Both the position numbers and the translations under genes were made by a program. Below the pieces are notes generated by a model that made no database searches, was not told the origin of the DNA, and worked only from the letters and a program-made list of their open reading frames with translations. Below are positions 9,777 to 51,295 of a stretch of 64,000 nt of DNA, in pieces. The stretch is from an uncultured Chromatiaceae bacterium. Its GTDB lineage: Bacteria > Pseudomonadota > Gammaproteobacteria > Chromatiales > Chromatiaceae. Positions within the stretch are counted from its first letter, which is position 1. Each line of letters begins with the position of its first letter. The stretch spans positions 14,976 through 78,975 of the forward strand of contig CAZOWL010000006.1 in the NCBI GenBank assembly GCA_964583605.1. The letters are read 5' to 3'.

Positions 9777-9898
9777 CTAACGATCATGGGGCGAGGCGAG
9801 CCACCCCGGACGATGAAATGTCGCCTCGCCCCTGATCGTTCCCTCACCCCAACCCTCTCCCAGAGGGCGAGGGAGCGAACGTGCTTCGCGAATTTCAT
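9777..9898 (+). repeat. MITE-like repeat, full copy (used here as reference)
   Basis: CTAACGATCATGGGGCGAGGCGA-(loop)-TCGCCTCGCCCCTGATCG forms a ~17-bp stem. It is followed by GTTCCCTCACCCCAACCCTCTCCCAGAGGGCGAGGGAGCGAAC (second hairpin) and GTGCTTCGCGAATTTCAT. Confidence 0.9.
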
Positions 9899-41417: not shown

Positions 41418-41804
41418 TTACGCGATCCTGCTCAACGCCCCCCGGACATATGGCCCGAGAATCAGAATCCCGATCGCCACGGAGCCGAGAGCCGCGAGGA
41501 GCACCGCACCGGCCGCGACATCCTTGGCTTTGCCGACGAGGGGATGAAAGTCCGGAGATGCGACGTCCGCGAGGAGTTCAAGAGCGGTGTTGAGTGCCTC
41601 TGCTGTCCACACCGACATCATGGCCAGCACGAGCCAACACCATTCATAGGCAGTGACTCCGAAGTAGAGTCCGCCGACGATCACCAGGATGGTCGCTACA
41701 GCGTGTATCCATGCATTGTGCTGTGTCGCGAGCATCAAGGCGATGCCCCTGAGCGCCTGTCGTAGGCTGCGGATGCGCGCGCTTGCTGTGAAGGTTCTAT
41801 TCAT
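41418..41804 (-). CDS. dgkA: Diacylglycerol kinase
   Basis: 128 aa with 3 TM helices: ATQHNAWIHAVATILVIVGG, WTAEALNTALELLAD and [17 protein letters not shown], as in DgkA. Confidence 0.85.
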   Translation of the reverse strand: MNRTFTASARIRSLRQALRGIALMLATQHNAWIHAVATILVIVGGLYFGVTAYEWCWLVLAMMSVWTAEALNTALELLADVASPDFHPLVGKAKDVAAGAVLLAALGSVAIGILILGPYVRGALSRIA

Positions 41805-42117
41805 GTCTTGCTCCGCAATCCGCGGTAGCTGGCGGCTCGCGCCGAGGGGCGAAGGCTGCCGTCTCTCCGTCCCGCAAACCTGCGAACAATCCCGACACAG
41901 GGGGCGACCCCGCGCGTGGCAGATCTCACGGCGCGAGCCGATCGGCTCCCGTCGCCCACTTCCATACTGCTTTCACAGTCGTTACGCGGTCGTTGCACCA
42001 ACGGGTTGTAGCCTTCTCGCTGTCGCAGGCGCGGAGGACTTCAGCTTCGAGGTTGGAGCGGAGCGAACTGCGCGCGACTTCGTCGTAAGGTCCCACAACC
42101 CTGATAAGGAGCGACCA

Positions 42118-42642
42118 ATGAGAAACATTATTGCACTGTCCACGACGATCCTAGCCCTGCTTGCCTCGGCGACCGCTTCGGCCGAGCTACGCCCGGGCGG
42201 CCCCGTTTGGTCAGCCGAGGGGCGCATCGACCGCCGCATCGAGCTCATGACCGAGCGGCTCGATTTGACGGCCGAGCAGCAGGCGGAGATACGCGACATC
42301 CTCGAGGCGCAGGCCCTGACGAGGAGGGAGCAGCGCGCGGCCGTTCGTCAGCAGATCGAGGCCGTGCTGACCAACGAGCAGCTCGCGATGCGCGATGAGG
42401 AGATAGCCAGACGTGTCGACCGGCGGGTGGCGCGCCTCGCCGATCGTCTCGGGCTTAGCGCCGAGCAGGAGGCCGAAGTGCGGACCCTGATGGGCGAGCC
42501 CAGCGATCCGGCCGACTGGGATCGCGGCGCGATGCGCGAGCGCCTGGCTGGCATACTGAGTGACGATCAGCTGGCGCAGCTCGACGCGATGGGTACCCGT
42601 CGCGGCTATCGCGATGGCCGCGCAGGCGGGTGCGCACGCTAG
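42118..42642 (+). CDS. Periplasmic Spy/CpxP-family (LTxxQ-repeat) stress protein
   Basis: ATG after AAGGAG. Signal peptide MRNIIALSTTILALLASATASA. LTxxQ-type repeats (LDLTAEQQAEIRDIL, VLTNEQLAMRDEE, LGLSAEQEAEVRTLM, LSDDQLAQLDAM). Confidence 0.75.
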   Translation: MRNIIALSTTILALLASATASAELRPGGPVWSAEGRIDRRIELMTERLDLTAEQQAEIRDILEAQALTRREQRAAVRQQIEAVLTNEQLAMRDEEIARRVDRRVARLADRLGLSAEQEAEVRTLMGEPSDPADWDRGAMRERLAGILSDDQLAQLDAMGTRRGYRDGRAGGCAR

Positions 42643-42711
42643 CCGATCCGTCGACGAGCGAGCCCAGAGAGGGCCGCTCGTTCACGCCGCGCTGCGCAAT
42701 CGAGGTGCTCG

Positions 42712-44202
42712 TTGAGCCTGTCCATCCGTACCAAGCTGTTCCTGACGTTGCTGATCGCAGGCACCCTGGCCGTGGTAGCCACGCACGCATTCGTTTACTG
42801 GTCATTTCGTCACGGATTGATGGAGCTTGCCGAGGCCCGCCAGCGGGACCGGCTGGGGCTGATCCGTGAGCGCCTCACGGAGCGGTTCCGAGAGGACCAC
42901 AGCTGGAAGCGGCTCGCCGAGGATCGGGCGCTATGGCTTGCGGCGTTGGCCGGGCATGGCGACGCACCCGGTCCGCGACACCGCTTCCGTCACCACCTTG
43001 TGCCTGAGGCGCCGAATGGCGGCTCCGGCATCCAGCGGTATCCTCGGCAGGACGCGCCCGGGGTGTGGCCCCCGTCACGCGTCCTGAGACGGGCTCGTGG
43101 CGCGGAGGGTCGGCCGCTGCCGCTCGAGATGCGGCTCATGTTGCTCGATGCTACCGGCGAGATCGTCTACGGCCGGCAGGAGCTCCTCCAGAATGCGGTG
43201 CGATTTCCACTGAGGCTGGACGGCGAGCGCATCGGCGAGCTGGCCCTGGTCCCCGGCCCACTGATCCACGAGACAGGGGAGCTGCGTTTCAAGGAGAGCC
43301 AGACCTCGGCCTTCGTCGCGATCGCCCTCGGTATGATCCTGCTCTCCGCGCTCTTCGCGTACCCGCTGTCCGAACGCCTCTCTCGGCCGATCCTGGCCTT
43401 CCGGGATGCGGCACGGCGACTCGCCGATGGTGACTTCGCTGCCCGCGTGCCGACTGACCGCCGCGACGAGCTCGGCCGCCTGGGCCGTGACATCAATACG
43501 CTGGCTGAGACCCTGGAGCAGAACGAGCAGGCGCGTCGCCGCTGGGTCGCGGACATCTCTCACGAGCTGCGCACCCCTTTGGCCCTCTTGCGGGCCGAGC
43601 TCGAGGCCCTGCAGGACGGCGTGCGTCCAATCGAGCGCACCGCCGTGGACTCGCTGCACGCCGATGTGCTGCGCCTGAGCCGACTTGTCGACGACCTCTA
43701 CGAGCTGTCGATGACCGACCTCGGCGCGCTGGCCTACCGTAAGACGGAGACCGATCTGGCCGAGGTCCTGCAGGAGGGGCTGAACGCCTACCGCGCCGAG
43801 CTCGCCGGGGCCGGCCTCGAGCTCGCGCTTGAGAACCGCCTGGGCGAGCCCGTGGTCTTGCAGACAGACCCGCACCGTCTCTCTCAGCTGTTCCGTAATC
43901 TGTTGCGCAACAGCCTCGAGTACACTGACGCTGGTGGCGGTCTTACCGTCACTGTCGGCAAAGAGCTCGATGAGCTGGTCATCGATTTCCAGGACACGGC
44001 CCCGGGAGTGCCGGTGCAGTCGCTGCCACACCTCTTCGAGCGACTCTATCGGGTCGAGGTCTCGCGCAGCCGCAACGCGGGCGGGGCCGGCCTTGGTCTG
44101 GCCATCTGCCGAAACATTGTCGAGGCGCATGGGGGGACCATTCAGGCCCGTCCATCGCCTTACGGCGGACTGTGGATCCGCATTCAGCTGCCCATTGCGT
44201 GA
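42712..44202 (+). CDS. Two-component sensor histidine kinase, BaeS-like
   Basis: Two TM helices, HAMP, a HisKA box WVADISHELRTPLALL and HATPase motifs (NLLRNSLEYT, DTAPGV, GGAGLGLAICRNIVEAHGG). TTG start. Confidence 0.85.
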   Translation: MSLSIRTKLFLTLLIAGTLAVVATHAFVYWSFRHGLMELAEARQRDRLGLIRERLTERFREDHSWKRLAEDRALWLAALAGHGDAPGPRHRFRHHLVPEAPNGGSGIQRYPRQDAPGVWPPSRVLRRARGAEGRPLPLEMRLMLLDATGEIVYGRQELLQNAVRFPLRLDGERIGELALVPGPLIHETGELRFKESQTSAFVAIALGMILLSALFAYPLSERLSRPILAFRDAARRLADGDFAARVPTDRRDELGRLGRDINTLAETLEQNEQARRRWVADISHELRTPLALLRAELEALQDGVRPIERTAVDSLHADVLRLSRLVDDLYELSMTDLGALAYRKTETDLAEVLQEGLNAYRAELAGAGLELALENRLGEPVVLQTDPHRLSQLFRNLLRNSLEYTDAGGGLTVTVGKELDELVIDFQDTAPGVPVQSLPHLFERLYRVEVSRSRNAGGAGLGLAICRNIVEAHGGTIQARPSPYGGLWIRIQLPIA

Positions 44203-44888
44203 TGAGAGACACCATCCTGATCGTCGAAGACGAAGAGCGGCTTGCCGAGGTGCTTGCCGACTATCTCAAGGCGGCCGGCTATGCGACAAACCAGCTCGGC
44301 GATGGGACGCACGCCGTCGCTTGGGTGCGCCAGCACCAGCTGGCCCTGATCCTATTGGACCTGATGCTTCCCGGCCGCAGCGGGCTCGACATCTGCCGAG
44401 ACATCCGGGCCTTCAGCGCAGTGCCAATCATCATGACCACGGCTCGCGTCGAGGAGATCGATCGCCTGCTCGGCCTCGAGCTAGGCGCCGACGACTATGT
44501 CTGCAAGCCCTACAGCCCGCGCGAGGTGGTGGCACGGGTCAAGGCTGTCCTTCGCCGCACTGGTCTCTCTCAGGGGAGTCAACCCGGGTGCCTGACGCTC
44601 GATGCGGACAGCTTACGGGTGCGCAGCGGAGCGCGTGAGGTTGAGCTGACAGCGGTCGAGTTCGCGTTGCTGCGGACCCTGCACTCAGCGCCGGGACGGA
44701 TCTTCTCTCGTGACCGCCTGATACAGCGGATCTACAACGATCATCGGATCGTCTCCGACCGCACGATCGACAGTCACATCAAGAAGCTCCGGCGCAAGCT
44801 TGCGGAACTGGCTCCAGAGCTGGATCTCATCCACTCGGTCTATGGCGTCGGCTATCGCTACGAGGAGCGACCGATGCGAATCGCCTGA
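44202..44888 (+). CDS. OmpR-family response regulator, BaeR-like
   Basis: ILIVEDEERLAEVLADYLKAAGY...LILLDLMLPGRSGLDICRDIRAFSAVPIIMTTARVEEIDRLLGLELGADDYVCKPYSPREVVARVKAVLRR is very close to E. coli BaeR. The start overlaps the kinase stop (TGATG). Confidence 0.85.
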   Translation: MRDTILIVEDEERLAEVLADYLKAAGYATNQLGDGTHAVAWVRQHQLALILLDLMLPGRSGLDICRDIRAFSAVPIIMTTARVEEIDRLLGLELGADDYVCKPYSPREVVARVKAVLRRTGLSQGSQPGCLTLDADSLRVRSGAREVELTAVEFALLRTLHSAPGRIFSRDRLIQRIYNDHRIVSDRTIDSHIKKLRRKLAELAPELDLIHSVYGVGYRYEERPMRIA

Positions 44889-44953: not shown

Positions 44954-45080
44954 TTACAATGAATTTCGCGAAGCACGTTCGCTCCCTCGCCCTCTGGGAG
45001 AGGGTTGGGGTGAGGGAACGATCAAGGGCGAGGCGACCTTTCATCATCTGGGGTGGCTCGCCTCGCCCCATGATCGTTAG
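44954..45080 (-). repeat. MITE-like repeat, full copy (left boundary of the lower-G+C cassette)
   Basis: TTACAATGAATTTCGCGAAGCACGTTCGCTCCCTCGCCCTCTGGGAGAGGGTTGGGGTGAGGGAACGATCAAGGGCGAGGCGA...CTCGCCTCGCCCCATGATCGTTAG. Confidence 0.9.
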
Positions 45081-45099
45081 CAGAAGAATGGAGATACGC

Positions 45100-45795
45100 A
45101 TGACCGTTATAAAGAAGGCTTGGCTCTTGTTGTCTTGTCTATTGTTGCTCATCCTGTTCTATGGCACGGCTTACGCCGAAGGAGCAGCAAGTGCATCCGA
45201 TGAGTCGGCCCAAGCATCGGACACCGACAAGTTCTCAACACGCAGGCCCGTGGTGATCAACTATTTTGGCAAGGTCAATGCCACAAATGCGGGTTATCTC
45301 GCGCGGATCATTCTCGACGAGGTCGCGAACAATAACCGCGACTTCCACATTAACATCAATAGCACTGGCGGCGACCCGGATTCAGGGCTTGCGGCATTCA
45401 ACATCATAGAAAGCCTTCCGGTGACCGTTACGACATTCAACGCCAATGAGGTGCAATCGGCGGCCGTCCATTTATACTGCCTTGGCGAGAGAAAATATGC
45501 CTATCCTGAGTCATTCTTTATGATCCACCCTGTGAAATGGAAGATCGATGATCTAACAATGACCGATATTCAGGCAAAATATCTTCACTCCCAGGTTATC
45601 GATCAACGAATAGGGAATATCGCAGAATCCTGCATGGATATTTCGAGAGACGAAATTCGGGAGTATTTCAACGGCAATCAGGATTTCTACTTCACTGCGG
45701 AGCAGGCGAAGTCGATCGGTCTGGTCGATGAGATATCGAGCAGGAATTTCATTCCGAAAAAGGTCTATTTGGTTTCCGACGACTATCGGGGGTAG
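45100..45795 (+). CDS. Secreted or membrane-anchored ClpP-fold serine protease (NfeD/SDH-type)
   Basis: Signal/anchor MTVIKKAWLLLSCLLLLILFYGTAYA. NINSTGGDPDSGLAAFNII, a catalytic-Ser context ANEVQSAAVHLYCLG and a His context SFFMIHPV follow the ClpP/NfeD order. The gene is conspicuously A/T-richer than all its neighbours. Confidence 0.7.
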   Translation: MTVIKKAWLLLSCLLLLILFYGTAYAEGAASASDESAQASDTDKFSTRRPVVINYFGKVNATNAGYLARIILDEVANNNRDFHININSTGGDPDSGLAAFNIIESLPVTVTTFNANEVQSAAVHLYCLGERKYAYPESFFMIHPVKWKIDDLTMTDIQAKYLHSQVIDQRIGNIAESCMDISRDEIREYFNGNQDFYFTAEQAKSIGLVDEISSRNFIPKKVYLVSDDYRG

Positions 45796-45862
45796 GGCCA
45801 ATGAGAATAGACACAACAGGCCCTATTCTTGGACCTGAACGGGGCCTTCGTCCCGTCACTAC

Positions 45863-45981
45863 CTGACGATCATGGAGCGAGACGAGCCACTCCGGATGAT
45901 GACATATCGCCTCGCCCCCTGATCGTTCCCTCACCCCAGCCCTCTCCCAGAGGGTGAGCGAGCGTGCTTCGCGAGCTCCAT
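45863..45981 (+). repeat. MITE-like repeat, diverged full copy (right boundary of the lower-G+C cassette)
   Basis: CTGACGATCATGGAGCGAGACGA...TCGCCTCGCCCCCTGATCGTTCCCTCACCCCAGCCCTCTCCCAGAGGGTGAGCGAGCGTGCTTCGCGAGCTCCAT. Confidence 0.85.
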
Positions 45982-46390
45982 AGTGAGCGCGGGTCGACGC
46001 TTCCGGCTTACCTATAAGCCGCATCTCTCCTTTGGGACCTCAGCCAGCCTCGCCTAGTACGCTGGTGACACTGAAATCGCGCCTCCATCGCGCAACGACG
46101 CGAAGACGCGTCGGTGTGAAGAAATGGCGGGCTCACTGTGAGCAAGCCAACCCCTGATCCCGAAAAAGACCAACTAAACTGTTTGGAATAGTGGCCGCGG
46201 ATGCCGCTCGAGGCTGGGTCGATCCGTATGCTGGAGCTCCGGGCGACTCGATTGGTGCTTGGCAGCTCCACCAGTGGCGAGAGATCCCGACGTTTCTCTG
46301 CCCTGTTTGCGTTTTCAACCGATGCGTGCTCGCGGTTCGAGCTGAGCGGTCCTTCCCCGAAACCATCCGTAGCGACCGGAGCGTGACGCG

Positions 46391-49300
46391 ATGAGCGATA
46401 GAGACGACGGCCTGGGACTTTCGATCCCCGGCATGGTGGTCGCGGCAACGCTGCTCGGCGTGGTGTTCTTCAAGAGCGTACCGTTGGAGACGACGCGGCC
46501 AGCGCCGGAGGCCCAGCTACCCGATGCGTCGGTGACCGCCGAGCGGGCGCCGGCACGGCTTTGGGAGGATCCGTTCAATGCCGTGTATCGGCATATGCCT
46601 AATACAACAGACAGGCCGGAGGCGCCTGATACCGGCGGCGACCCGCCGGCCAACCCCGACTTCTGCTCCACTGACACCGTCGGCGCGCGGGCAGAGCGGG
46701 TCGACCCGCACGAGGCCTCGGCCCCGCCCTGCATCGCCGACCAGATCGCGCATCGCAACCAGCTCGGGCGCAAGCCGCGCATCCTGGCCGTCATGCTCCC
46801 AGGCGCGACCTCCGTCGAGTCCGGCGAGAACCGCATCCGGCGCCGCTACGCGGTCCTCTCCGCCCTGCACATCGCCGGCTTCGTTCCGGATGACGCAACC
46901 CATATTGGCTGGTTCCGTACGATCCCCGGCTCGGACCTGCCGGCGGTGATCCCCTACGAGTGGATGACCGCCACCGACGGCGCGGCCGACCCGGGCTCGG
47001 TGCTCGTCCTCTGGCTCGACGACACGCCATTTCGCCAACGTCTCCACCGGGGCCTGACCGGTCTGGTGGCCGGCATCCTGCCGAAGGACCAGCTGCCGGC
47101 GGACGGCAAGGTCGATGTGGCGGTGCTTGGGCCGTCGTCGTCCGACGGGCTGGTCGGGCTGCTGCGGGAGGCGGCTGCCATCGCCGCTCCAACAGTGGCA
47201 AGCGGCGCCCAGATGCCGGCCTACGACGCGGGCATGGCTGGCATGATCGGTTTGGCCGGCACGGGCACGATTGGAGCGACCCCCGTCTGGCCAGATCGGG
47301 CGTTCGAGATCCGTCTCGATGTGTACTCGGCAACGGCGACGGCAGCCGACGACGAGTTGTTCGATCGCGCCGGGATCGAAGGCGACGGAAGGACCGTTGC
47401 TGACTATCTGTTTTGCCGCCTCAACCTGGACCTGCACCGCACCATCGCCGACGATCGGGTCTTAGTCGAGATACTCGCCGCGGAGCTGGGCGCCCGTTTC
47501 GATCGGAGCTCCGGACCACTGCTCGGGCTGGCTATCGGCCTGCGCAAGGCAACGTCCGCGGTGCGCGAGGCTACCGTCGATCGTCTGCGCGGCACAATCC
47601 CGCCTGTGGGCTCAGGCAAGGGAGGCAAGCACGTCGTCCTGGTCTCGGAGTGGGACACCGCCTACGGCCGCTCACTGCCGATCAGTCTCTGCAAGGCCCT
47701 CGAGGCCGAGCTCGGTAAGACGACCCCCTGCGCTCACGTCGACCAGCGTGGGGCCGGCTACCCGGCAGGAGAAAGTGAGTCGCAGGGAGGAGCGGACTTG
47801 CCCTGGGTGCATCGCTTCACCTACATGCGCGGCCTCGACGGGACCTTGGGGGCGACCGGGGGGCACGCCGGTGATCACTCGCTTGCCGACGCACTGGCCG
47901 AGTCGGCCCAAGGTACGCCGCAGCTCGACTACCTGCGGCGACTCGCCGGCCGCCTCGTCTCGCTGGAGCGAGGCTTGCCCAGTGGCCACTCGATCGCGGC
48001 TGTGGGTATCCTCGGCAGCGATATACACGACAAGCTGCTCATCCTGCAGGCCCTGCGACCAGCGTTCCAGGGTGCGGTGTTCTTCACGACGGACCTGGAC
48101 GCACGACTCTACGAGCCGGCACAGCTGCAGTGGACACGGGGCCTGGTGGTCGCCACCGGCTTCGGTCTGCAGCTCGAGGGAGCCACGGGTGCGGCGCCGA
48201 CGGGCATCGATTGCCAGGATTCGATCCCGCCGTTTCGCAGCGGCTACCAGACTGCGTTCTTCTACGCGGCGCGCGAGGCGCTCGGTGCCCTACCGGAGGC
48301 CTGCCGACTCGGCACCGAGCCGGGCTATCGCCAGGTTGAGGCAGCCGGCCAGGCGCCAGCGCCGGCCCGGCTGTTCGAGATCGGGCGCACGGGTCCGGTC
48401 GCGCTGATCCCGCCGAGGCCCGCGGGTGACGACCAAGGGGCCGATCCTGCCTCATCCGCGCCGGGCGCTCGTGCCCTTGGTAAGCAGGACACGGGCCAGG
48501 CCCGGCTCAACGCCTGGCTTGACGTACTCCTGCTGCTGGTGATGGGCTGGGGCCTGTTTCTGGTCTTCTACCACCGGCATGTGCCCCTCTGGTGGGGGGC
48601 GCTGGGCCAAAGGCTGCGCCGATCCCCGCTCGGCACCAGCCTCGGCCTGATCCTGGCCCTGTTGGCGCTCGGCGGTCTGTTGGCTTGGCTCTGGCGCGAT
48701 CTGGAGGTGCTCGCCTGTCCCCTTGCCCTCGATGCGACGGCCTGTGCCGAGCCGTTCAGCGTCACCAGCGGCATCAGCATCTGGGCGCCTGTCTACCTGC
48801 AGCTGTTGGCCGTGGTGCTGTCGGCGCTGTTCATCGCCCGCGTGCTGGTGCGGTTTCGCGCCAACATGCTTGGCCTCTCGAGCCGGTATTTCCTTGGCCG
48901 GGGCTGTGGGATCGAAAGACGACCTGCGCCAGCCGGGCTGTGGGCGGCGTCGCATGCGGAGCTGCGGCACTGGGCGCAAGTAGGGCTGCGCTGGCTCCGG
49001 CGTCCGGGCTGGGACCGAGCCGACAGCTTGGCGGATCAGGTCTCGGCGAGGGCCGACACCGCGGCGGATACAGGGCACCCTAGCGAGCCGCTGGATACCG
49101 ACGATGCGCTGAGGCTCTGGCTACAGTACTGTCGGCGATCGCGATTCTGGTGGCGGGTGCTGCGCGTCGTGGCCCTGTCCATCCTGCTGTTCGCTGTCGT
49201 GGTTGCTCTGTATTGGGCGACCGGGGGCGGTGGCAACAGCCCGGTCCGCGATGCTGAGCTCGCCCGGATCTTCCTGGAGCTACGGCTCCTCGGCGTGCTC

Positions 49301-49897
49301 CTCGGCGGCATGCTCGCCTTAGCCGTGCTGGACATCGCGCTGGAGTGCCGGCGCTTCATCGACCAGCTTTCGCGTGCCTCGGTCGCCGAGGAGCCGGCGC
49401 GTTGGCCGAGCCAGGTTGCCGCCGGCTTCCAGGCTAACCTGCACCTGGACCCCGCCCGGCTATCGCCTTGGATCGCGCTCAGCGTGATCTCCGAGCACGC
49501 GGACCTGGTCATGCGCCTGGTAGTCTATCCGCTGATCGTGCTCGTGGTCCTGGTGGTCGCCCGGCTGCCCTGGCTCGACACCACCAGCCTGCCGCCGAGC
49601 ATCCTCATCGTCTACCTGGTCTTCGCCTTCTACATCTTTTTCGTCGCCGTCGGCATCCAACGCGCGGCGAACGGGGCCAAGGCCCGAACCCGCGAGCACT
49701 ACCAGACCCTGCTTGACGGCAACCGGAACGCCCCAGTCGAGGATCCCAAGACCAACACCCAGCTTGAATGTCTGATCCGCCAGGTCTCCGAGCTGCACGA
49801 CGGTGCCTTCAAGCCGCTGCCGGCACGGCCGCTCGTGCGCATGGCGCTGCTGCCGTTCGGGGCGCTTGGGGTGGGGCTGTTGGAGTTGTTCGGCTAA
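46391..49897 (+). CDS. Orphan 1168-aa polytopic membrane protein of unknown function
   Basis: Uninterrupted ORF with native-like G+C. One N-terminal TM (IPGMVVAATLLGVVFF) is followed by a ~650-aa soluble region with alternating strand/helix blocks (RILAVMLPG, VDVAVLGPSSSDG, HVVLVSEWDTAYGRS, AAVGILGSDIHDKLLILQAL, AVFFTTDLDARL). At least 7 further TM helices and a conserved-looking tail (GAFKPLPARPLVRMALLPFGALGVG) follow. I recognise no family motif. Confidence 0.75.
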   Translation: MSDRDDGLGLSIPGMVVAATLLGVVFFKSVPLETTRPAPEAQLPDASVTAERAPARLWEDPFNAVYRHMPNTTDRPEAPDTGGDPPANPDFCSTDTVGARAERVDPHEASAPPCIADQIAHRNQLGRKPRILAVMLPGATSVESGENRIRRRYAVLSALHIAGFVPDDATHIGWFRTIPGSDLPAVIPYEWMTATDGAADPGSVLVLWLDDTPFRQRLHRGLTGLVAGILPKDQLPADGKVDVAVLGPSSSDGLVGLLREAAAIAAPTVASGAQMPAYDAGMAGMIGLAGTGTIGATPVWPDRAFEIRLDVYSATATAADDELFDRAGIEGDGRTVADYLFCRLNLDLHRTIADDRVLVEILAAELGARFDRSSGPLLGLAIGLRKATSAVREATVDRLRGTIPPVGSGKGGKHVVLVSEWDTAYGRSLPISLCKALEAELGKTTPCAHVDQRGAGYPAGESESQGGADLPWVHRFTYMRGLDGTLGATGGHAGDHSLADALAESAQGTPQLDYLRRLAGRLVSLERGLPSGHSIAAVGILGSDIHDKLLILQALRPAFQGAVFFTTDLDARLYEPAQLQWTRGLVVATGFGLQLEGATGAAPTGIDCQDSIPPFRSGYQTAFFYAAREALGALPEACRLGTEPGYRQVEAAGQAPAPARLFEIGRTGPVALIPPRPAGDDQGADPASSAPGARALGKQDTGQARLNAWLDVLLLLVMGWGLFLVFYHRHVPLWWGALGQRLRRSPLGTSLGLILALLALGGLLAWLWRDLEVLACPLALDATACAEPFSVTSGISIWAPVYLQLLAVVLSALFIARVLVRFRANMLGLSSRYFLGRGCGIERRPAPAGLWAASHAELRHWAQVGLRWLRRPGWDRADSLADQVSARADTAADTGHPSEPLDTDDALRLWLQYCRRSRFWWRVLRVVALSILLFAVVVALYWATGGGGNSPVRDAELARIFLELRLLGVLLGGMLALAVLDIALECRRFIDQLSRASVAEEPARWPSQVAAGFQANLHLDPARLSPWIALSVISEHADLVMRLVVYPLIVLVVLVVARLPWLDTTSLPPSILIVYLVFAFYIFFVAVGIQRAANGAKARTREHYQTLLDGNRNAPVEDPKTNTQLECLIRQVSELHDGAFKPLPARPLVRMALLPFGALGVGLLELFG

Positions 49898-50015
49898 CGA
49901 TCATGGGGCGAGGCGAGCCACCCCCGACCATGAAACGTCGCCTCGCCCCTGATCGTTCCCTCACCCCAACCCTCTCCCAGAAGGCGAGGGAGCGAACGTG
50001 CTGCGCGAATTTCAT
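49894..50015 (+). repeat. MITE-like repeat, full copy (first of a tandem pair)
   Basis: CTAACGATCATGGGGCGAGGCGA...TCGCCTCGCCCCTGATCGTTCCCTCACCCCAACCCTCTCCCAGAAGGCGAGGGAGCGAACGTGCTGCGCGAATTTCAT. It contains the TAA stop (49895-49897) of the 1168-aa ORF. Confidence 0.9.
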
Positions 50016-50016
50016 G

Positions 50017-50138
50017 GTAACGATCATGGGGCGAGCCGAGCCACCCCGGATGATGAAAGCTCGCCTCGCCCCTGATCGTTCCCTCACCCCAGCCCTCTCC
50101 CAGAGGGCGTGGGGGCGAACGTGCTTCGCGAGCTTCAT
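50017..50138 (+). repeat. MITE-like repeat, full copy (second of a tandem pair)
   Basis: GTAACGATCATGGGGCGAGCCGA...CTCGCCTCGCCCCTGATCGTTCCCTCACCCCAGCCCTCTCCCAGAGGGCGTGGGGGCGAACGTGCTTCGCGAGCTTCAT. Confidence 0.9.
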
Positions 50139-50512
50139 AGTAGGTGCCGCCGCCACTGGAGACGCTGTTTGATCGCGTGGCCAACGCATGGCGTCAGTGC
50201 AAAATGACACAGAGCGCCGCATATATCTTCGTCACACGTGGATTTGCCGTCGCGATGCATGCCCCTCGCGCCCGATCGCTGTGTTGCGCCTCCTCTCCAT
50301 GGGGCCCGCTACGCCTCGTCGGCACGCCTGGCGCTCGGGCCCGATTGGCGCACCGCGCCTGCCGCAAGAGCCATGCGCGACGGGCATAGCTTTCGAGTAA
50401 CATCTCGGTCGCGGCCGGTTGACGAAGAGCAGCTCGGGTACGCCAGTGGTCTGTCGGCCATTATTGCGTAGCGTCAACGGGCCTCAACGACCATCTTGTG
50501 GAGACCCCACCC

Positions 50513-51295
50513 ATGGCGAACTTTGGCAACCTCCTCGGGACTTTCTTGCAGTCGAATATGGCCCAGTCGGGTCAGCAGCGTATGGCCCATGCGGCACAGG
50601 ATCTCCAAACTAGCCTTGGGTCGCTCGGCGCCGGTCAGGGCGGCGCAGGCGGGCTCCTCGGCGGGCTGTTGGATATGGCCAAGGGCGGCTTGAGCAGTGC
50701 CGGGCAGAATCCGCTGCAGGCCGGCGGCATCGGGGCAGCACTCGGGTCCGTGCTCGGCGGTGGCGGGGATTCGGTGAAAGGGGCCCTGACGGGTGGCGCC
50801 CTGGCGATGCTCGCCGGCGTCGCCTTCAAGGCGCTGAATCAGGCCGAGCGTGGCGGGGCAACCAATGTCGGCGACGCCGCGCCGCTCAGTGCCGGGGCCC
50901 TGCCGCTCGGGCTGAAGCCACCGGAGACACCGGCTGAGCAACAGGTACTCAACACGAAGACCCAACTGATCGTGAAGGGCATGATCAACATCGCCAAATC
51001 GGACGGTCAGGTCGGCCTCGACGAGCTGCAGCGGATCATCGGGAAGGCCGAGGACCTCGGCGCTGACGATAAGGATTGGCTGATGGCCGAGCTGCAGCAG
51101 CCGCTCAATCTGGATGCGTTCGTGGCCGAGATCCCCAACCAAGAGGTCGCGGCCGAGGTCTATGCGGCGTCCCTGCTCGCCGTGGAAGTCGACACACCGC
51201 AGGAGCAGGACTATCTCAGGCTTTTTGCCGAGAAGACGGGGCTGCATCCCCTCGTGGTTCAGCACATCCATCAGGCGATGGGGGTGGCGGTCTGA
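50513..51295 (+). CDS. DUF533 / TerB-family (YebE-like) protein
   Basis: MANFGNLLGTFL..., a Gly-rich region (GGLLGGLLDMAKGG), one TM (GGALAMLAGVAFKAL) and a C-terminal TerB-like module (MINIAKSDGQVGLDELQRI...EVYAASLLAVEVDTPQEQDYLRLFAEKTGL). Confidence 0.75.
   Translation: MANFGNLLGTFLQSNMAQSGQQRMAHAAQDLQTSLGSLGAGQGGAGGLLGGLLDMAKGGLSSAGQNPLQAGGIGAALGSVLGGGGDSVKGALTGGALAMLAGVAFKALNQAERGGATNVGDAAPLSAGALPLGLKPPETPAEQQVLNTKTQLIVKGMINIAKSDGQVGLDELQRIIGKAEDLGADDKDWLMAELQQPLNLDAFVAEIPNQEVAAEVYAASLLAVEVDTPQEQDYLRLFAEKTGLHPLVVQHIHQAMGVAV

Follow-up and report, generated by a model that had tools for sequence, protein, structure and literature searches.

Proteins in which an extracellular, amino-acid-type flytrap domain is joined to a membrane effector are known from the G-protein-coupled receptors (GPCRs) of class C (mGluR, T1R, CaSR) and from Venus kinase receptors. 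The same principle is found in ionotropic glutamate receptors (iGluRs), including bacterial GluR0, in which domains of the periplasmic binding protein (PBP) fold gate a tetrameric cation channel within one polypeptide; the amino-terminal domain of iGluRs is a type-I PBP. Insect gustatory and odorant receptor channels (Gr43a, BmGr9, Gr64a, Orco/OR; Pfam 7tm_7 and 7tm_6), on which the superfamily of seven-transmembrane ion channels (7TMICs) was founded, bind their ligand inside the helix bundle and have no extracellular domain. 7TMICs of bacteria and archaea (Bac7TMIC, Arch7TMIC) were reported only in 2023, were recognised only via predicted structure and have neither a known function or ligand nor a known physiological role (Himmel, Moi & Benton 2023, bioRxiv 10.1101/2023.08.30.555482). 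Full-text literature searches yielded no publication that describes a flytrap-7TMIC fusion or deals with what prokaryotic 7TMICs do. Here we describe a gene on the forward strand of a 64-kb stretch of DNA from an uncultured Chromatiaceae bacterium (contig CAZOWL010000006.1; the whole stretch is called the window below), whose product of 1168 aa may combine both designs. We tentatively favour the reading that it is a ligand-gated channel, in which a periplasmic flytrap domain gates a 7TMIC-type pore.

The gene is a complete open reading frame (ORF; 46391..49897, + strand) that runs from an ATG, preceded by GGAG at a distance of ~9 nt, to a TAA stop in the ORF listing of the window. A first-pass annotation, made from the sequence of the window, had called the protein an orphan, and this did not hold. 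An exhaustive phmmer search of 1.84 billion cluster representatives returned 3385 proteins (50%-identity clusters) at E<=1e-3, 1550 of them at E<=1e-30, and a scan in which each GTDB species was represented by a single genome gave at least 575 loci with family members. A word-indexed search gave 41 relatives, all of ~1000-1200 aa and lacking a Pfam domain, and every named one was a "hypothetical protein". What stands of the orphan status is the lack of a curated family: scans of Pfam, NCBIfam, PADLOC and PDB sequences with the 1168-aa protein yielded neither a significant match nor the signature of an enzyme or transporter, in line with the first-pass impression. Sub-threshold matches to DUF6010, DUF805, 8xMP and similar models were rejected as noise from hydrophobic segments, and no Pfam domain was detected in the N-terminal extensions of longer relatives (1284-1606 aa). 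The protein is thus a member of a large, widespread family that is covered by no curated family model. In a family alignment of 174 sequences, to which the conservation values below refer unless stated otherwise, 142 positions are at least 80% conserved.

Hydropathy analysis detected an N-terminal transmembrane (TM) segment at aa 8-26, a soluble stretch of ~680 aa and eight further hydrophobic cores (708-726, 747-765, 801-819, 923-941, 966-984, 1039-1057, 1071-1089 and 1148-1166) with Arg/Trp-rich loops between them, which agrees with the architecture proposed in the first-pass annotation (one N-terminal helix, a large soluble region and at least seven helices with such loops). Together with an AlphaFold2 (AF2) model this amounts to nine TM segments, namely a signal anchor, a linker and seven helices (S1-S7b, Table 1). 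Across the family the density of Lys and Arg is 0.15-0.19 in the inner loops (the post-linker loop and intracellular loops IL1, IL2 and IL3) versus 0.02-0.10 in the outer ones; the extremes are the loop before S1 (0.19, net charge +2) and the first extracellular loop, EL1 (0.024, net charge -2.1). This contrast places the large domain in the periplasm and the last seven helices in an N-in to C-out orientation. The periplasmic position of the domain, left undecided at first pass, is thus predicted by the positive-inside rule for the 1168-aa protein as well as for the 174 members. Two TM segments separate the flytrap domain from EL1 in 129 of the 174 members, while by a crude count some subfamilies apparently have four. 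One such subfamily (P0011, P0013, P0017, P0020 and P0024) has a linker of ~162 aa between the flytrap domain and EL1 with seemingly four hydrophobic segments instead of two (columns ~1300-1600 of alignment A1); as this number is even, the topology would stay the same.

The AF2 model of the whole protein, built from a 34-sequence alignment, has a mean predicted local distance difference test score (pLDDT) of 72 and a predicted template-modelling score (pTM) of 0.71. It folds the periplasmic part into two alpha/beta lobes with low-confidence insertions at aa 268-302, 373-410, 442-472 and 485-508. Strands and helices alternate regularly in the DSSP assignment of the soluble part, and a Foldseek search against the PDB returned type-I PBPs, as the first-pass annotation had suspected from this alternation. 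The best match to a leucine-isoleucine-valine (LIV)-binding protein was 4q6b (E=3e-4, probability 1.0, target-normalised TM-score 0.59). Further matches were the LIV-binding proteins 7jfn, 3n0x, 3lkb and 3lop, the "extracellular ligand binding receptor" 5ere, glucose/galactose-binding proteins, a urea-binding protein and the ligand-binding domain of a fish T1R taste receptor (5x2m). The target-normalised TM-scores were 0.54 for 7jfn, 0.55 for 3lkb, 0.49 for 3n0x, 0.50 for 8tg1, 0.44-0.48 for 1gca/2gbp and 0.39 for 5x2m, and probabilities for the LIV-binding proteins and the T1R domain lay at 0.98-1.0. With LivJ and LivK (Peripla_BP_6/ANF_receptor) the domain therefore has the two-lobed fold (TM-score 0.49-0.59) and the periplasmic location in common. 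It is ~300 residues larger owing to the four insertions, falls below every Pfam threshold and is tethered between two TM helices with no ABC transporter genes nearby, whereas LivJ-type proteins are soluble. Peripla_BP_6, ANF_receptor and similar models did not match the 1168-aa protein, nor 34 members at E<=1, and a family profile search of PDB sequences retrieved no PBP. From the models, the assignment of the periplasmic half to the type-I PBP fold is well supported.

The most conserved motifs of the domain (LGPxxS, YSxxATA, RTIxxD..L..EL, SEWDTxYGRSLP, QxDYLRRL, GVLGSDVYDKLLILQALR and FFTTDLDARL) run colinear with strand-end motifs of LivJ and mGlu1 (reference sequences identical to 1Z15_A and 1EWK_A), which share GPxxS, SxxAT, RTxxxD, DxxYG and TTD with it. 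In mGlu1, S165, T188, D208, Y236 and D318 hold the alpha-amino-acid moiety (PMC2680970). Their colinear counterparts by motif order, with partial support from hhalign, are S251, T317, D355, Y425 and D568, each of which is 94-99% conserved and lies at a strand end or helix start of the AF2 model. For LivJ, residues S79, T102, Y150 and E226 were taken as reference for amino-acid recognition. When a 72-sequence periplasmic profile (A4) was aligned with 14 LivJ-family sequences by hhalign (P=0.001-0.0014, probability 18-21%), RTIxxD was paired with LivJ LRTTGLD and SEWDTxY425GR with LivJ DKQQY150GEG, an alignment of weak probability; with single LivJ or mGlu1 sequences as targets, neither hhalign nor hmmsearch of the periplasmic profile gave a significant result. 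From these motifs, the ligand may be an alpha-amino acid or else a related amine or carboxylate. The upstream ~600 bp had no Rfam match, and hence give no riboswitch hint at the ligand, and no sigma-70-like promoter.

Conserved residues of the domain could instead belong to a catalytic site. The protein would then be a membrane-anchored periplasmic enzyme with an envelope substrate, its Rossmann-like lobes being catalytic through invariant Asp, Glu and Arg residues, including the DxD-like TTDLDA motif, and its membrane domain binding a lipid-linked partner. The number of invariant charged residues is indeed unusually high (E146, R148, R152, E190, D355, E365, D422, D483, D513, R517, D547, D568, D570 and R616). 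However, Foldseek probabilities were 0.9-1.0 for binding proteins and at most 0.15 for M17 aminopeptidases, the only enzymes listed; no glycosyltransferase, hydrolase or phosphotransferase family was matched, and the gene shows no linkage to genes of envelope biosynthesis. We regard an enzyme as quite improbable.

In the Foldseek search with the full-length model, the Drosophila receptor Gr43a (8x82) was the second-best PDB match overall (E=3.6e-4, probability 1.0), followed by BmGr9, Gr64a, OR5-Orco, AgamOR28 and AaegOR10. A separate AF2 model of aa 690-1168 (pLDDT 80, above 90 for S3-S7b; pTM 0.78) matched BmGr9, Gr43a, Gr64a, AaegOR10, AgamOR28 and OR5-Orco at probabilities of 0.7-0.99 over 327-434 aligned columns, which is close to a whole insect receptor; the best of these was BmGr9 (8vv3; E=4.5e-3, probability 0.99). 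All other matches of this model had probabilities of at most 0.35, bar a few designed or SNARE helical bundles. With either model, the membrane half thus finds specific PDB matches only in gustatory and odorant receptors of insects, and the proposal made at first pass that the gene encodes a receptor or channel-like protein fits this half.

No transporter fold was among the Foldseek matches of either model, and this bears on a second alternative, namely a binding-protein-dependent secondary transporter whose flytrap domain captures a solute that the eight-helix membrane domain translocates. The closest PBP matches are binding proteins for amino-acid and sugar transport, and in ABC systems substrate-binding domains are known to occur fused to the membrane domains of transporters. 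Against such a function speak also the absence of a transporter family match in Pfam or NCBIfam, the absence of a conserved ATPase, permease or other transport gene beside the gene in 80 related loci, and a split last helix and a cytoplasmic helix bundle that are atypical of transporters. A transporter is improbable in our view. A GPCR identity is opposed by the lack of a GPCR among the Foldseek matches, the predicted N-in orientation and the lack of a Cys-rich domain.

7TMICs are characterised by an N-in/C-out orientation, short outer loops, long TM4-TM6 and a split TM7 (Himmel, Moi & Benton 2023, bioRxiv 10.1101/2023.08.30.555482), and the predicted membrane half has each of these traits. 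Its orientation follows from loop charge and from the chain end after the last helix, and the extracellular loops (family medians of 21, 23 and 13 aa for EL1, EL2 and EL3) are shorter than the intracellular ones (79, 49 and 58 aa for IL1, IL2 and IL3 with S7a). S4, S5 and S6 are 44, 36 and 44 residues long and reach beyond their hydrophobic cores (966-984, 1039-1057 and 1071-1089), and in both models the last helix is split (1119-1133 and 1147-1167) at a GAFxP...P hinge. This hinge also bears out the first-pass impression that the tail is conserved (Table 1), and its F1140 and P1147 are invariant in A1. The chain ends one residue after S7b (1-6 residues in relatives), whose mean hydropathy exceeds 1.0 in 90% of the members. 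The published screen for prokaryotic 7TMICs retained only proteins with exactly seven TM segments (bioRxiv 10.1101/2023.08.30.555482), and a flytrap fusion with nine, such as this one, would thus have been excluded; the requirement is a filter of that screen and not a property of the fold. Judged from the models, it is fairly probable that the membrane half has the 7TMIC fold.

The prokaryotic 7TMICs described so far (bioRxiv 10.1101/2023.08.30.555482) resemble the family in their N-in/C-out orientation, short outer loops and split S7, and differ from it in having exactly seven TMs, whereas the nine of the family include a signal anchor and a linker TM on either side of the ~650-aa flytrap domain. 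By description, most of them have short S4 and S5, in contrast to the long S4, S5 and IL1 found here; this IL1 recalls PHTF-type 7TMICs, which are likewise described with a long IL1. With insect Gr/Or channels the membrane half shares the pattern of helix lengths, the split last helix, the conserved C-terminal helix and a C-terminus just outside the membrane. It differs from them in the separate flytrap domain and in a full linker TM before S1, where the insect receptors have a re-entrant helix (TM0). Class C GPCRs have an N-out bundle of seven helices and a cysteine-rich linker, whereas the present protein is predicted to be N-in and has no such linker. Neither the K-channel-like M1-P-M2 pore of iGluRs nor their type-II PBP agonist site split by the pore is present. 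Bacterial 7TMICs as such are already published, and the membrane effector of the present family differs from those of class C GPCRs, Venus kinase receptors and iGluRs.

If the gene encodes a ligand-gated channel, the signal anchor would put the ~650-aa flytrap domain into the periplasm and the linker helix would return the chain to the cytoplasm. A small periplasmic ligand would bind in the cleft between the two lobes, and lobe closure would be relayed to the membrane module via the ARLWQDPF juxtamembrane segment and the conserved outer loops. The likely coupling elements are R36-P37 and A55-RLW-x-DP61 of the juxtamembrane segment, which is possibly a coupling element as a whole (aa 31-66; R36, R56, W58, D60 and P61 are invariant in A1), E787-P...G-x-S-x-W-P in EL1, P951-x-R-G in EL2 and R1058...F-D-x-W in EL3. 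The corresponding outer-loop motifs EPxxxxxGxSxWP, PxxPxRG and RxxxFDxW are conserved across the family, and just before the EL1 motif lie C778 and C786, which are present also in the closest relatives, P0002-P0004. Closure would open a pore in an oligomer, by analogy a tetramer, with the conserved S7b helices as its lining, and ion flux itself would be the output. Such an output would explain the absence of a kinase, cyclase or other output domain and of a conserved partner gene, and with neither of these found the simplest reading is that the membrane module itself is the effector. The ORF, the size of the family, the topology, the PBP fold of the periplasmic half, and the topological traits and exclusive Foldseek matches of the membrane half come from computation; the class of ligand, the oligomeric state, gating and the conduction of ions are points that we infer only.

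To a third alternative the same periplasmic PBP fold and topology apply. The protein could be a flytrap receptor without channel function, its membrane module being a signalling scaffold for an unlinked partner or a target of regulated proteolysis, and it would signal through the Arg/Trp-rich inner loop and the cytoplasmic helix extensions to a cytoplasmic or membrane partner. The long IL1 (family median 79 aa, Lys and Arg density 0.17) and the conserved cytoplasmic helical extensions could be a docking surface, and the 7TMIC fold assignment is insecure (TM-scores 0.25-0.36). However, the strongest conservation of the membrane half is found in the helices, the outer loops and the hinge of the C-terminal helix and not in IL1, no recognisable output or interaction domain was found in the Pfam, NCBIfam and PADLOC scans, and 80 loci from many phyla have no conserved neighbour in common. 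We consider this receptor unlikely, if less so than a transporter or an enzyme.

The neighbour analysis behind this argument, as well as the taxon tally given below, covers the best 80 of at least 575 loci. Clustering of the neighbouring ORFs revealed no family that accompanies the gene beyond lineage-level synteny; the best recurrence was 12 loci, all from Nitrospira (DNA polymerase III alpha, NnrS-like, SelO-like). NtrC-type regulators, which recur in 8 of the 80 loci, were rejected as partners, being common genes at a distance of 3-8 kb. The window and the two closest loci have nothing in common except the gene itself. Upstream of the gene is a gap of 595 bp that holds one copy of a miniature inverted-repeat transposable element (MITE) and ~400 bp of unassigned DNA. 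The statement of the first-pass annotation that the gene stands alone is thus confirmed.

Several observations weigh against a flytrap-gated 7TMIC pore. The TM-scores to insect receptors are only 0.25-0.36 with a root mean square deviation of 9-18 Å, so that the 7TMIC fold identity is suggested and not demonstrated. At E<=1, 71 TM-only members gave no profile link to 7tm_6, 7tm_7, Trehalose_recp, DUF3537 or PHTF in Pfam, and the membrane-half profile gave no 7TMIC link among PDB sequences. On the periplasmic side the link to PBPs is weak at the sequence level (hhalign probability 18-21%), and the mapping of residues onto mGlu1 and LivJ is one of motif order, not of structural superposition. 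We know of no 7TMIC that is gated by an extracellular domain. As to the missing profile links, the 7TMIC families are likewise without such sequence similarity among themselves (bioRxiv 10.1101/2023.08.30.555482). Some matches were discarded: those to 7tm_7 at E=0.15 in 2 of 34 full-length members, which were not reproduced in the 71 TM-only members, as chance; those of family profiles to 5-HT2/BRIL chimeras among PDB sequences (E~6e-4, ~21 bits, heavily gapped) as a compositional artefact; and one to the translocon gamma subunit, from the same search, as compositional. Both halves can be assigned to a known class at the level of fold, not of sequence family. The first-pass annotation, which could not name the type of protein, is superseded in so far as the nearest fold class is nameable for both halves, for the membrane half by predicted structure and with low TM-scores. 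Overall its observations were partly confirmed and its interpretation is partly supported.

Table 1. Features of the 1168-aa gene, its product and the flanking repeats (positions in the window; aa, residue numbers of the protein; conservation among 174 sequences).
Feature	Position	Strand	Basis or remark
Upstream MITE copy	45866..45990	+	~400 bp before start codon
TM1, predicted signal anchor, N-in to out (aa 8-26)	46412..46468	+	Hydropathy; single N-terminal TM in 153/174 members
Juxtamembrane periplasmic segment (aa 31-66): P31, R36-P37, A55-R56-L57-W58-x-D60-P61	46481..46588	+	87-97% conserved
Two-lobed periplasmic domain, predicted type-I PBP/Venus-flytrap fold (aa ~128-675)	46772..48415	+	AF2, Foldseek
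Five candidate ligand-contact residues S251, T317, D355, Y425, D568	47141..48094	+	Motifs LGPxxS, YSxxATA, RTIxxD, SEWDTxYGR, FFTTDLDA
Linker TM, out to in (core aa 708-726; model helix 701-728)	48512..48568	+	Hydropathy and model; returns chain to cytoplasm
S1, in to out (aa 747-765)	48629..48685	+	Hydropathy, models, loop charge
EL1 motif E787-P788...G794-x-S796-x-W798-P (aa 787-800)	48749..48790	+	93-99% conserved; almost without K/R
S2 (aa 801-819)	48791..48847	+	Hydropathy, model
IL1, long Arg/Trp-rich inner loop (aa 820-922)	48848..49156	+	Three short lower-confidence helices; 17 K+R
S3 (aa 923-941)	49157..49213	+	Hydropathy, model
S4, long helix (aa 955-998), ~14 residues into cytoplasm	49253..49384	+	DSSP of both models, pLDDT >90; L975, D981 conserved
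S5, long helix (aa 1021-1056), kink at 1044	49451..49558	+	Models; P1047 99% conserved
S6, long helix (aa 1069-1112), ~23 residues into cytoplasm	49595..49726	+	Both models
S7a candidate, cytoplasmic helix (aa 1119-1133)	49745..49789	+	Both models
Hinge G-A-F-x-P...P (aa 1138-1147), S7a-S7b	49802..49831	+	G1138 94%, A1139 95%, F1140 95%, P1147 99%
S7b candidate, last membrane helix (aa 1147-1167), candidate pore liner	49829..49891	+	Both models
Two tandem ~125-nt MITEs (49895-50017, 50018-50140)	49895..50140	+	First begins with the TAA stop of the gene

The best 80 loci comprise ~34 from Nitrospira/Nitrospirales, six from Nitrosospira/Nitrosovibrio, one each from Nitrococcus and Nitrospinaceae, and six from methanotrophs (Methylocystis, Methylobacter, Methylococcaceae and Methylotetracoccus). 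The remainder includes Variovorax, Rivibacter, Thiobacillus, Gallionella, Verrucomicrobia, Planctomycetes, Acidobacteriota and deltaproteobacteria. Nitrifiers thus account for ~42 and methanotrophs for ~6 of the 80, though the query is gammaproteobacterial; this may be a real enrichment in ammonia-, nitrite- or methane-oxidisers or a sampling bias of metagenome-assembled genomes (MAGs). The closest genome among the matches listed is an uncultured gammaproteobacterial MAG (HOU_bin.0101) with two copies (L001 and L002). A paralogue pair was also seen in MAG MFD03975.bin.1.282 (L026 and L080). Several ORFs make up the L002 copy, and P0042, the database protein of its contig, comprises the C-terminal 669 aa only; a frameshifted pseudogene or a fault of the assembly may lie behind this.

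An intact member of 1039 aa (WP_254706924.1) is encoded on the megaplasmid NZ_CP039340.1 (L082, 5986-9105) of Ralstonia pseudosolanacearum UW386, a plant pathogen that is genetically tractable, where the gene has no annotation in PLSDB and is a "hypothetical protein" at NCBI. UniProt A0A0S4TUK3 (1041 aa), from the same 90%-identity cluster, is named "conserved membrane protein of unknown function". Only one of 72,556 plasmid records matched and the cluster has four members, so the copy appears to be accessory in that species complex. P0187 (L081, 1900-3432), a protein of 510 aa that is 60% identical to the membrane half, was considered as a stand-alone membrane module and rejected, as it is a 5'-truncated copy immediately downstream of a Y2 transposase fragment. 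A word-indexed search with a TM-only profile returned three proteins and was uninformative on other architectures of the module.

The MITE-like repeat of ~125 nt is present in ten copies in the window, with the core motif CCTCACCCCAACCCTCTCCCAGAGGG starting at 9842, 13670, 17264, 23134, 30312, 36393, 44990, 45929, 49959 and 50082; a further tandem pair follows 36393. Most copies start with (C)TAACGATCATGGGG and end with TTCATNGTAA, termini that suggest insertion at TAA with target duplication, and TAA is found on both borders of the element in most of the ten. The TAA stop of the gene is accordingly the insertion target or its duplication. The first-pass annotation rightly placed MITEs on both sides of the gene. 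Its further claim, that the downstream one provides the stop codon, did not stand: the closest relatives end with the identical ...LLELFG, and the insertion therefore left the protein unchanged.

That the ORF arose by chance, or is a decaying gene without function in this genome, is hinted at by its solitary position between MITEs and by damaged relatives such as the truncated P0187 beside a transposase and the split L002 paralogue. The frame, however, is intact over 1168 codons and colinear with relatives from end to end (full-length alignment with P0002-P0004, both termini matching, at 58-63% identity). All family-invariant residues are present, and the G+C content of 0.66-0.71 is that of the surrounding genome. 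Given the conservation of the gene, this explanation is effectively refuted.

Upstream, within 44954-45990, lies a gene of low G+C content (0.51-0.53, with 0.66-0.70 in its surroundings) for a ClpP-family protease (Pfam CLP_protease, E=6e-19). It probably starts at the ATG at 45101, so that the protease has an N-terminus resembling a signal peptide; the ORF as listed, from 44959, takes its first codons from a MITE. Inverted MITE copies (44954-45088 and 45866-45990) bracket the gene, which in view of these copies looks like a foreign insertion. A Cpx-like envelope-stress set at 41689-44888, directly upstream, consists of an LTXXQ/Metal_resist (CpxP/Spy-like) protein, a HAMP-HisKA-HATPase sensor kinase and an OmpR-type response regulator; its linkage to the 1168-aa gene is not kept in other genomes. 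Downstream, a DUF533 (TerB-like) gene (50498-51295) follows on the same strand at 600 bp, with the two tandem MITEs in between, and this adjacency is not kept at the loci of relatives.

For the family as a whole, more than 3000 sequence clusters, among them those of nitrifiers, methanotrophs and a plant pathogen, constitute an annotation gap without a Pfam or NCBIfam model. The 7TMIC assignment is made from predicted structure only, and should it fail, what would remain is a widespread family of membrane receptors that bear a flytrap domain and have no known output mechanism. That an amino-acid-type flytrap directly gates a bacterial 7TMIC pore, as a third independent design by which a flytrap gates a membrane effector, is a possibility that we put forward with some doubt. 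If true, this design would stand alongside class C GPCRs and ionotropic glutamate receptors, and a prokaryotic 7TMIC would for the first time have a predictable ligand site. A further consequence would be that the 7TMIC fold can be gated from an external domain and not only from within the helix bundle, and that the fold of the insect chemoreceptor channels served chemosensing long before animals. The fusion to a well-understood ligand-binding fold offers a concrete handle on the function of prokaryotic 7TMICs, and it makes the question whether these are ligand-gated channels directly testable.

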